NCBI RefSeq assembly: GCF_003334405.1 | Contig: NZ_QOWM01000005.1 | From: Escherichia coli | Lineage (GTDB): Bacteria; Pseudomonadota; Gammaproteobacteria; Enterobacterales; Enterobacteriaceae | Reading direction: 5' to 3' (one strand) | DNA length: 64,000 nt | The notes under the pieces: generated by a model | What the model was told of the DNA's origin: nothing | Databases searched by the model: none | What the model saw: the letters and a program-made list of their open reading frames with translations, nothing else | Part shown: positions 56,181-56,196 of the stretch, in pieces | Layout: each line of letters starts with the position of its first letter | Numbering within the stretch: the stretch's first letter is position 1 | Made by a program: the position numbers and the translations under genes

Positions 56181-56196
56181 TGGCATAAAAGATGCA
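56181..56196 (+). promoter_or_regulatory. Sigma-54 (-24/-12) promoter of fdhF
   Basis: tggcataaaagatgca fits the TGGCAC-N5-TTGCA pattern about 50 bp upstream of the fdhF ATG; fdhF is a known sigma-54/FhlA-dependent gene. Confidence 0.75.

Follow-up and report, generated by a model that had tools for sequence, protein, structure and literature searches.

Promoters of the glnAp2/NtrC type share with the fdhF promoter of Escherichia coli a GG-N10-GC core, a stable closed complex and a distant AAA+ activator with a GAFTGA loop. The fdhF promoter differs from them in its activator, its signal, which is formate, and its enhancer sequence; the activator FhlA senses its ligand directly, without phosphorylation by a partner kinase, unlike NtrC at glnAp2. 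Reviews describe FhlA as binding upstream of fdhF and hyc and as responding directly to millimolar formate. Within the E. coli formate regulon, hycA, hypA, hydN and hyfA each carry, like fdhF, a -24/-12 element bound by sigma-54 (PMC4591121, Table 1), and FhlA is the common activator of all of these genes in published work (including PMC3844500 and PMC4987338). Clusters of TCGWCA/GTCA-type repeats resembling those at fdhF are present in the K-12 hyc-hyp intergenic region and upstream of hydN; the region upstream of hyfA has only one TCGWCA. The palindrome CGTCA-N4-TGACG is distinct to the fdhF enhancer when it is compared with the other formate-regulon promoters. By published PSSM score, the fdhF element (11.0) falls below those of hycA (12.4) and hypA (14.1) (PMC4591121), a weaker consensus match that is due to a T at position 6 and an A before the TGC.

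Orthologous promoters have been studied in two other genera. The Salmonella Typhimurium fdhF promoter (STM4285) contains the site TGGCATAAAACATGCATA, which was bound by sigma-54 in ChIP-chip experiments, and with a promiscuous activator supplied the gene responded 29-fold in a sigma-54-dependent manner (Samuels et al., 2013; PMC3844500). Salmonella differs from E. coli by one substitution (G to C) in the spacer, at a position that is not contacted, and in the first enhancer half-site, which reads TCGACA rather than TCGTCA; in S. enterica subsp. arizonae the enhancer is laid out as in E. coli, and the promoter likewise lies 67 nt from the ATG. In Proteus mirabilis, an fdhF reporter is induced by formate and falls in fhlA and rpoN mutants, and its promoter activity requires the GAFTGA motif of FhlA (PMC7658346), so that dependence on fhlA, rpoN and formate has been demonstrated directly in this related genus.

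The closest described system is the fdhF promoter of E. coli K-12 itself, fdhFp (b4079; Birkmann, Sawers and Boeck, 1987; EcoCyc; OS41), which is the same locus as the one analysed here. We refer to the whole stretch of E. coli DNA under analysis, 64,000 nucleotides (64 kb) in length, as the window. From 55900 to 56700 the window shows 99.9% identity to the K-12 mdtP-fdhF junction, and 5,420 of 5,426 complete E. coli genomes contain a match; the promoter, the upstream activating sequence (UAS) and the leader are identical to K-12 base for base, with no difference in the regulatory region. The sole K-12 difference in this interval falls within mdtP, at 56039 (+ strand, codon 486), where the window has A instead of the G found in K-12 and in all of the best-matching complete E. 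coli genomes, none of which is 100% identical over 55900-56700. The substitution puts Lys in place of Glu, three residues from the C-terminus of MdtP.

The gene downstream of the element is fdhF, encoding the selenoprotein formate dehydrogenase H. The identification follows from the approximately 99.9% identity to the K-12 mdtP-fdhF junction, from a reading frame of 715 codons with one TGA, and from a SECIS match. The translation contains a single in-frame stop, the TGA at codon 140 (56665-56667), which is the selenocysteine codon and is preceded by 139 codons. A bacterial SECIS element lies over this codon (Rfam SECIS_2, 56660-56714, + strand) and reaches 87.1 bits, the gathering score being 70. 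The features of the promoter and gene are as follows:

56181-56197, + strand: sigma-54 -24/-12 promoter element, TGGCATAAAAGATGCAT, recognised by sequence, PWM rank 1, ChIP-seq site OS41 and conservation
56207, + strand: predicted transcription start (G), 12 nt past the C of the GC; the ATG begins 41 nt further on
56207-56247, + strand: 41-nt leader, with the Shine-Dalgarno sequence GGAG at 56236-56239
56248-58395, + strand: fdhF coding sequence, formate dehydrogenase H, 715 codons, annotated from the K-12 locus, which is identical

An initial annotation of this DNA had proposed a sigma-54 promoter upstream of fdhF, with GG and GC dinucleotides at the canonical spacing about 50 bp before the ATG. 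The sequence TGGCATAAAAGATGCA can be read directly on the + strand at 56181-56196, with 10 nt between its GG (56182-56183) and its GC (56194-56195); this is exactly the canonical GG-N10-GC and bears out the proposed geometry. The 3′ end of TGGCATAAAAGATGCA lies 51 nt before the fdhF ATG at 56248, so the proposed distance was a fair estimate, and the first T of the TGG lies 67 nt upstream. With the predicted start as reference, the GG falls at -25/-24 and the GC at -13/-12. The element is intergenic and on the same strand as fdhF, with three mismatches to the consensus TGGCACG-N4-TTGCW. The presence of a -24/-12 element upstream of fdhF is confirmed, and we regard 56181-56197 as almost certainly fdhFp, the sigma-54 (RpoN) promoter of fdhF, activated by formate through FhlA. 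The sigma-54 promoter of fdhF is textbook knowledge, not a new element.

Bonocora et al. set the transcription start 19 nt downstream of the motif centre, leaving 41 nt to the fdhF start codon (PMC4591121), and these figures map the start to 56207 here. The assignment of this nucleotide is a prediction, backed by an EcoCyc ‘confirmed’ flag at second hand. The gene fdhF goes unmentioned in Schaefer 2015. The leader region TTAACTGGAGCGAGACCGATG is approximately 89% conserved, its fold is no better than those of shuffled sequences (z = +0.48), and an Rfam search returned no family over the promoter or the leader. We considered a structured leader or riboswitch and rejected it on the basis of this z value and of the Rfam result, in which the sole match was the SECIS inside the gene. 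The 5′ end of the fdhF message was reportedly mapped by Birkmann et al. in 1987, who are said to have been the first to note an ntrA-type promoter here; the present coordinates are consistent with that account.

Published genome-wide data place sigma-54 on this element in vivo. In the ChIP-seq study of Bonocora et al., the peak OS41 (FAT 41) lies on exactly the fdhF motif; six of all 135 sites rank above it, four of them among the 42 intergenic sense sites (PMC4591121). Its MEME motif, GTGGCATAAAAGATGCA, was assigned to fdhF and flagged as experimentally confirmed in EcoCyc (PMC4591121), and it agrees exactly with the window sequence. The cells in that study were in mid-log growth in M9 (PMC4591121), and occupancy under such conditions, where the promoter is not induced, agrees with the stable closed complex that sigma-54 typically forms. 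Zhao et al. (2010) list fdhF among 18 known sigma-54 promoters, at -67 to -50 from the ATG (PMC2831329, Table 1), which is exactly its position here, and its expression decreased 2.2-fold in an rpoN deletion and increased 3.0-fold on sigma-54 induction (PMC2831329), which demonstrates rpoN dependence in E. coli.

To compare the regulatory region across species, we used fdhF loci from 80 species of Enterobacterales, taking the 230 nt upstream of the ATG in each, and calculated conservation from one representative of each of 19 genera. Two conserved segments upstream of the promoter constitute a putative FhlA enhancer:

56088-56111, + strand: UAS part A, TTTCGTCA-CGTCAAAACTGACGAC, approximately -119 to -96 from the predicted start; putative FhlA enhancer
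56114-56134, + strand: UAS part B, CCTGTTTTTCGTCAGAGTTTT, approximately -93 to -73; putative second FhlA site

Part A contains a half-site TCGTCA (56090-56095), the palindrome CGTCA-N4-TGACG (56096-56109) and an inverted half-site TGACGA (56105-56110), and its mean identity across the 19 genera is 82%, compared with 36-55% in the flanks. Part B carries a third half-site TCGTCA (56122-56127), and over 56114-56128 its mean identity across 19 genera is likewise 82%. Together these conserved TCGTCA, CGTCA-N4-TGACG and TTTCGTCAG blocks place FhlA-type repeats at about -119 to -79, within 56088-56134. The three TCGWCA half-sites, at 56090, 56105 and 56122, form one of only two clusters in the 64-kb window with three such half-sites within 60 nt. 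A UAS at about -110 was reportedly defined by Birkmann and Boeck in 1989, and the coordinates found here are consistent with it.

In 66 of 71 species, 85-86 nt separate the CGTCA-N4-TGACG palindrome from the TGGCA of the promoter; in the remaining five the distance is 76-77 nt, about one helical turn shorter. Similarly, TTYCGTCAK precedes TGGCA by 61-62 nt in 59 of 66 species. The distance from promoter to ATG takes 16 different values across species, from 51 to 84 nt. Fixed spacing between enhancer and promoter, combined with a leader that drifts in length, is the pattern expected of an activator that works from one face of the helix.

FhlA probably contacts DNA within 56088-56134, as conservation and motif similarity suggest. 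The TTTCGT core of the fdhF enhancer agrees with the FhlA enhancer consensus CATTTCGTACGAAATG, attributed to Leonhartsberger et al. (2000) as quoted in PMC4987338, and the published FhlA consensus sequences disagree among themselves (PMC4987338, PMC7658346). Secondary sources, citing Schlensog et al. and Leonhartsberger et al. (2000), report that FhlA binds the upstream region. The FhlA- and formate-dependent expression of fdhF put forward in the initial annotation finds support in the Proteus reporters, in the reviews and in this conserved enhancer.

After mdtP lies one further feature:

56057-56082, + strand: mdtP intrinsic terminator hairpin, with a T-rich tail to about 56092

A terminator scan identified a hairpin whose 11-bp stem includes 6 GC pairs and whose tail is TTTCGTTTCG, and the RNA is predicted to fold at -19 kcal/mol (z = -4.1), with none of 200 shuffled sequences folding as well. 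The terminator probably insulates fdhF from the upstream mdtNOP operon, making read-through unlikely, and one of this strength implies that fdhF needs a promoter of its own. The T-rich tail, TATTTCGTTTCG (56081-56092, + strand), extends into the 5′ end of the fdhF enhancer and includes TATTTCGT, which resembles the FhlA half-site consensus CATTTCGT. The stretch 56081-56092 is conserved only in Escherichia and is therefore probably not an essential part of the enhancer.

These features bear on a reading in which the sigma-54 site is non-productive or accessory and most fdhF transcription comes from a sigma-70 promoter or from mdtNOP read-through. We consider this very unlikely, although Bonocora et al. 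note that many sigma-54 binding sites may never yield transcription (PMC4591121) and the effect of the rpoN deletion on fdhF, measured in aerobic minimal medium, is modest (2.2-fold; PMC2831329). Read-through would have to pass the strong terminator after mdtP, and a consensus scan of 55950-56350 found no sigma-70-like promoter; the nearby RpoD-holoenzyme SELEX peak that has been published lies between fdhF and yjcO, downstream of fdhF. Furthermore, the sigma-54-dependent rise in Salmonella is 29-fold (PMC3844500), the activity of the Proteus fdhF promoter is lost in rpoN and fhlA mutants (PMC7658346), and an idle site is hard to square with the fixed spacing between enhancer and promoter.

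A second alternative is that the GG-N10-GC match is a functionless chance occurrence. Taken without its context, the motif is no more than chance would give. In the 64-kb window there is one TGGCA-N7-TGCA, against 1.12 occurrences expected from shuffled sequences, and a search of the window with the strict consensus TGGCACG-N4-TTGCW, allowing up to two mismatches, did not recover the fdhF site and gave 10 matches against 15.7 expected. For a more sensitive measure we built a position weight matrix (PWM) from 133 of the 135 published sigma-54 ChIP-seq motifs (Bonocora et al.), excluding the fdhF and melB sites, both of which lie inside the window. The fdhF site scores 15.8 bits, ranks first of approximately 128,000 window positions and exceeds 77% of the genuine bound sites; 0.70 sites as good as this one are expected per random 64 kb. 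The PWM scan that the initial annotation had proposed as a check therefore does place the fdhF site first, but the score alone is within chance.

The assessment changes when position is considered. We defined promoter-appropriate positions as intergenic, on the strand of the gene and 20-150 nt upstream of its start codon, which covers 2.7% of positions in the annotated span. Only 0.015 equally strong PWM matches are expected in such positions, and of the 15 best PWM matches the fdhF site alone occupies one. The significance of the fdhF element thus depends on its position being counted in.

Conservation of the element across species bears on the same question. Exactly one same-strand TGGCA-N7-TGC is present upstream of fdhF in 78 of the 80 species, and across the 19 genera TGGCA and TGCAT are 100% conserved, compared with 73% for the 7-nt spacer and 36-55% for the surrounding non-coding sequence. 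Among 5,421 E. coli records, 5,403 show at least 99% identity over a 41-nt segment that spans the element. Such asymmetric conservation is the pattern predicted by selection on the sigma-54 contacts, and the -24 and -12 bases appear to be under purifying selection and the spacer not. A chance origin, which the single match against 1.12 expected and the 0.70 equal-scoring PWM matches per 64 kb would by themselves allow, is refuted by these invariant blocks with variable bases between and around them and by a ChIP-seq peak centred on the motif, in agreement with the context-corrected expectation of 0.015, and we regard it as having next to no probability. An equally negligible alternative, that a dimeric transcription factor uses the partly palindromic GCAT-N5-ATGC core as its operator and that this core is no sigma-54 element, can appeal to a short inverted repeat within GCATAAAAGATGC, but the conservation is asymmetric (TGGCA, including the GG, and TGCAT) with no symmetric pattern, and the ChIP antibody was directed against sigma-54, with all 13 validated sites losing enrichment in an rpoN deletion (Bonocora et al.; PMC4591121). 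We therefore retain the reading of the element as the sigma-54 promoter of fdhF, a claim of the initial annotation that is supported by ChIP-seq occupancy, rpoN dependence, conservation and an enhancer at fixed spacing.

Only Leclercia sp. 29361 and Entomohabitans teleogrylli (2 of the 80 species) are without TGGCA-N7-TGC upstream of fdhF. The Leclercia locus has a clean deletion of the promoter and keeps the enhancer blocks, and Entomohabitans keeps TGGCATAAAT and has lost the -12 part. In both, the fdhF frame is open and includes the Sec codon over the 639 codons available. An intact 5′ region of fdhF without the element in these two species indicates that the element is not universally indispensable.

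Two other PWM matches in the window lie inside genes. The third best, TTGGCGCGCATAATGCC (55089-55105, + strand, 14.0 bits), is inside mdtP in the sense orientation, approximately 1.1 kb upstream of fdhF, and is absent from the published high-stringency sigma-54 ChIP-seq sites. Inside melB, TGGGTATGGCTCTTGCT (11720-11736, - strand) matches exactly a published sigma-54 ChIP-seq site within the gene, IS49 (FAT 8), yet ranks only 15th in the PWM scan. A site that is bound and yet ranks 15th indicates that sequence score is a poor predictor of occupancy.

The arrangement of these features suggests how the promoter may operate. Sigma-54 RNA polymerase occupies the GG at -24 and the GC at -12 and would be held there as a closed complex, even in the uninduced state. 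Formate-bound FhlA, an activator of the AAA+ ATPase class, would occupy the TCGTCA and CGTCA-N4-TGACG repeats at 56088-56134, although the particular bases that it touches can only be proposed, and would reach the polymerase by looping out approximately 85 bp of DNA. ATP hydrolysis by FhlA would then open the promoter. Transcription would begin near 56207 and produce the 41-nt leader followed by the selenoprotein mRNA, in which codon 140 is read as selenocysteine by means of the SECIS hairpin. Given the strong terminator after mdtP, expression of fdhF would depend on the sigma-54 promoter.

One conserved segment lies between the putative enhancer and the promoter:

56148-56172, + strand: conserved block C, CCGTAATATCAGGGAATGACCCCACAT, -59 to -35, downstream of the putative FhlA enhancer and upstream of the promoter

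Across the 19 genera, block C has a mean identity of 64%, above the background of 36-55%, and its CGTAAnnTCAGG and CCACA cores are more highly conserved. IHF acts at hyc/hyp. At fdhF, a search of 56100-56200 with the IHF consensus, allowing up to one mismatch, gave no match, and we rejected an IHF site between enhancer and promoter on this basis. Lying roughly halfway between enhancer and promoter, block C may have an architectural role, or bend the DNA, where the loop has its apex. We give a low probability to its being a distinct, undescribed cis-element, whether the site of an architectural or regulatory protein or an intrinsic bend. If it is, a loop as short as this one (85 nt between the palindrome and -24) could become workable through block C without an IHF site; alternatively, block C could bring in a further signal, for example nitrate, oxygen or molybdate. 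Block C may already be covered by the deletion analysis of 1989.

The fdhF promoter ties the synthesis of FdhH, and hence the production of hydrogen by formate hydrogenlyase, to intracellular formate during fermentation, and it is in use as a biosensor of formate and hypoxia. Its role has been established since the late 1980s, and its confirmation here shows that a sigma-54 promoter is recognisable from sequence. The present analysis adds quantitative detail, namely an invariant core over 19 enterobacterial genera, a spacing between enhancer and promoter that is held across species, and the conserved block C.

Tandem repeats account for a difference in coordinates between the window and K-12. 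The yjdN-yjdM intergenic region (29430-29809) contains 3.8 copies of a 100-nt tandem repeat with REP-like, GC-rich palindromic units, and at this array the window is 199 nt shorter than K-12 MG1655. The melB site lies approximately 200 nt from the position predicted from K-12 because the copy number of the tandem repeat differs; we considered a mapping error and rejected it in favour of this difference. The region 8913-58614 is otherwise collinear with MG1655, at approximately 99.96% identity with 19 mismatches. Downstream of fdhF, in the yjcO-gltP intergenic region (59269-59620, + strand), AATCAGGCTATTG occurs four times with a 113-nt period (59269, 59382, 59495 and 59608), which indicates another tandem repeat array.
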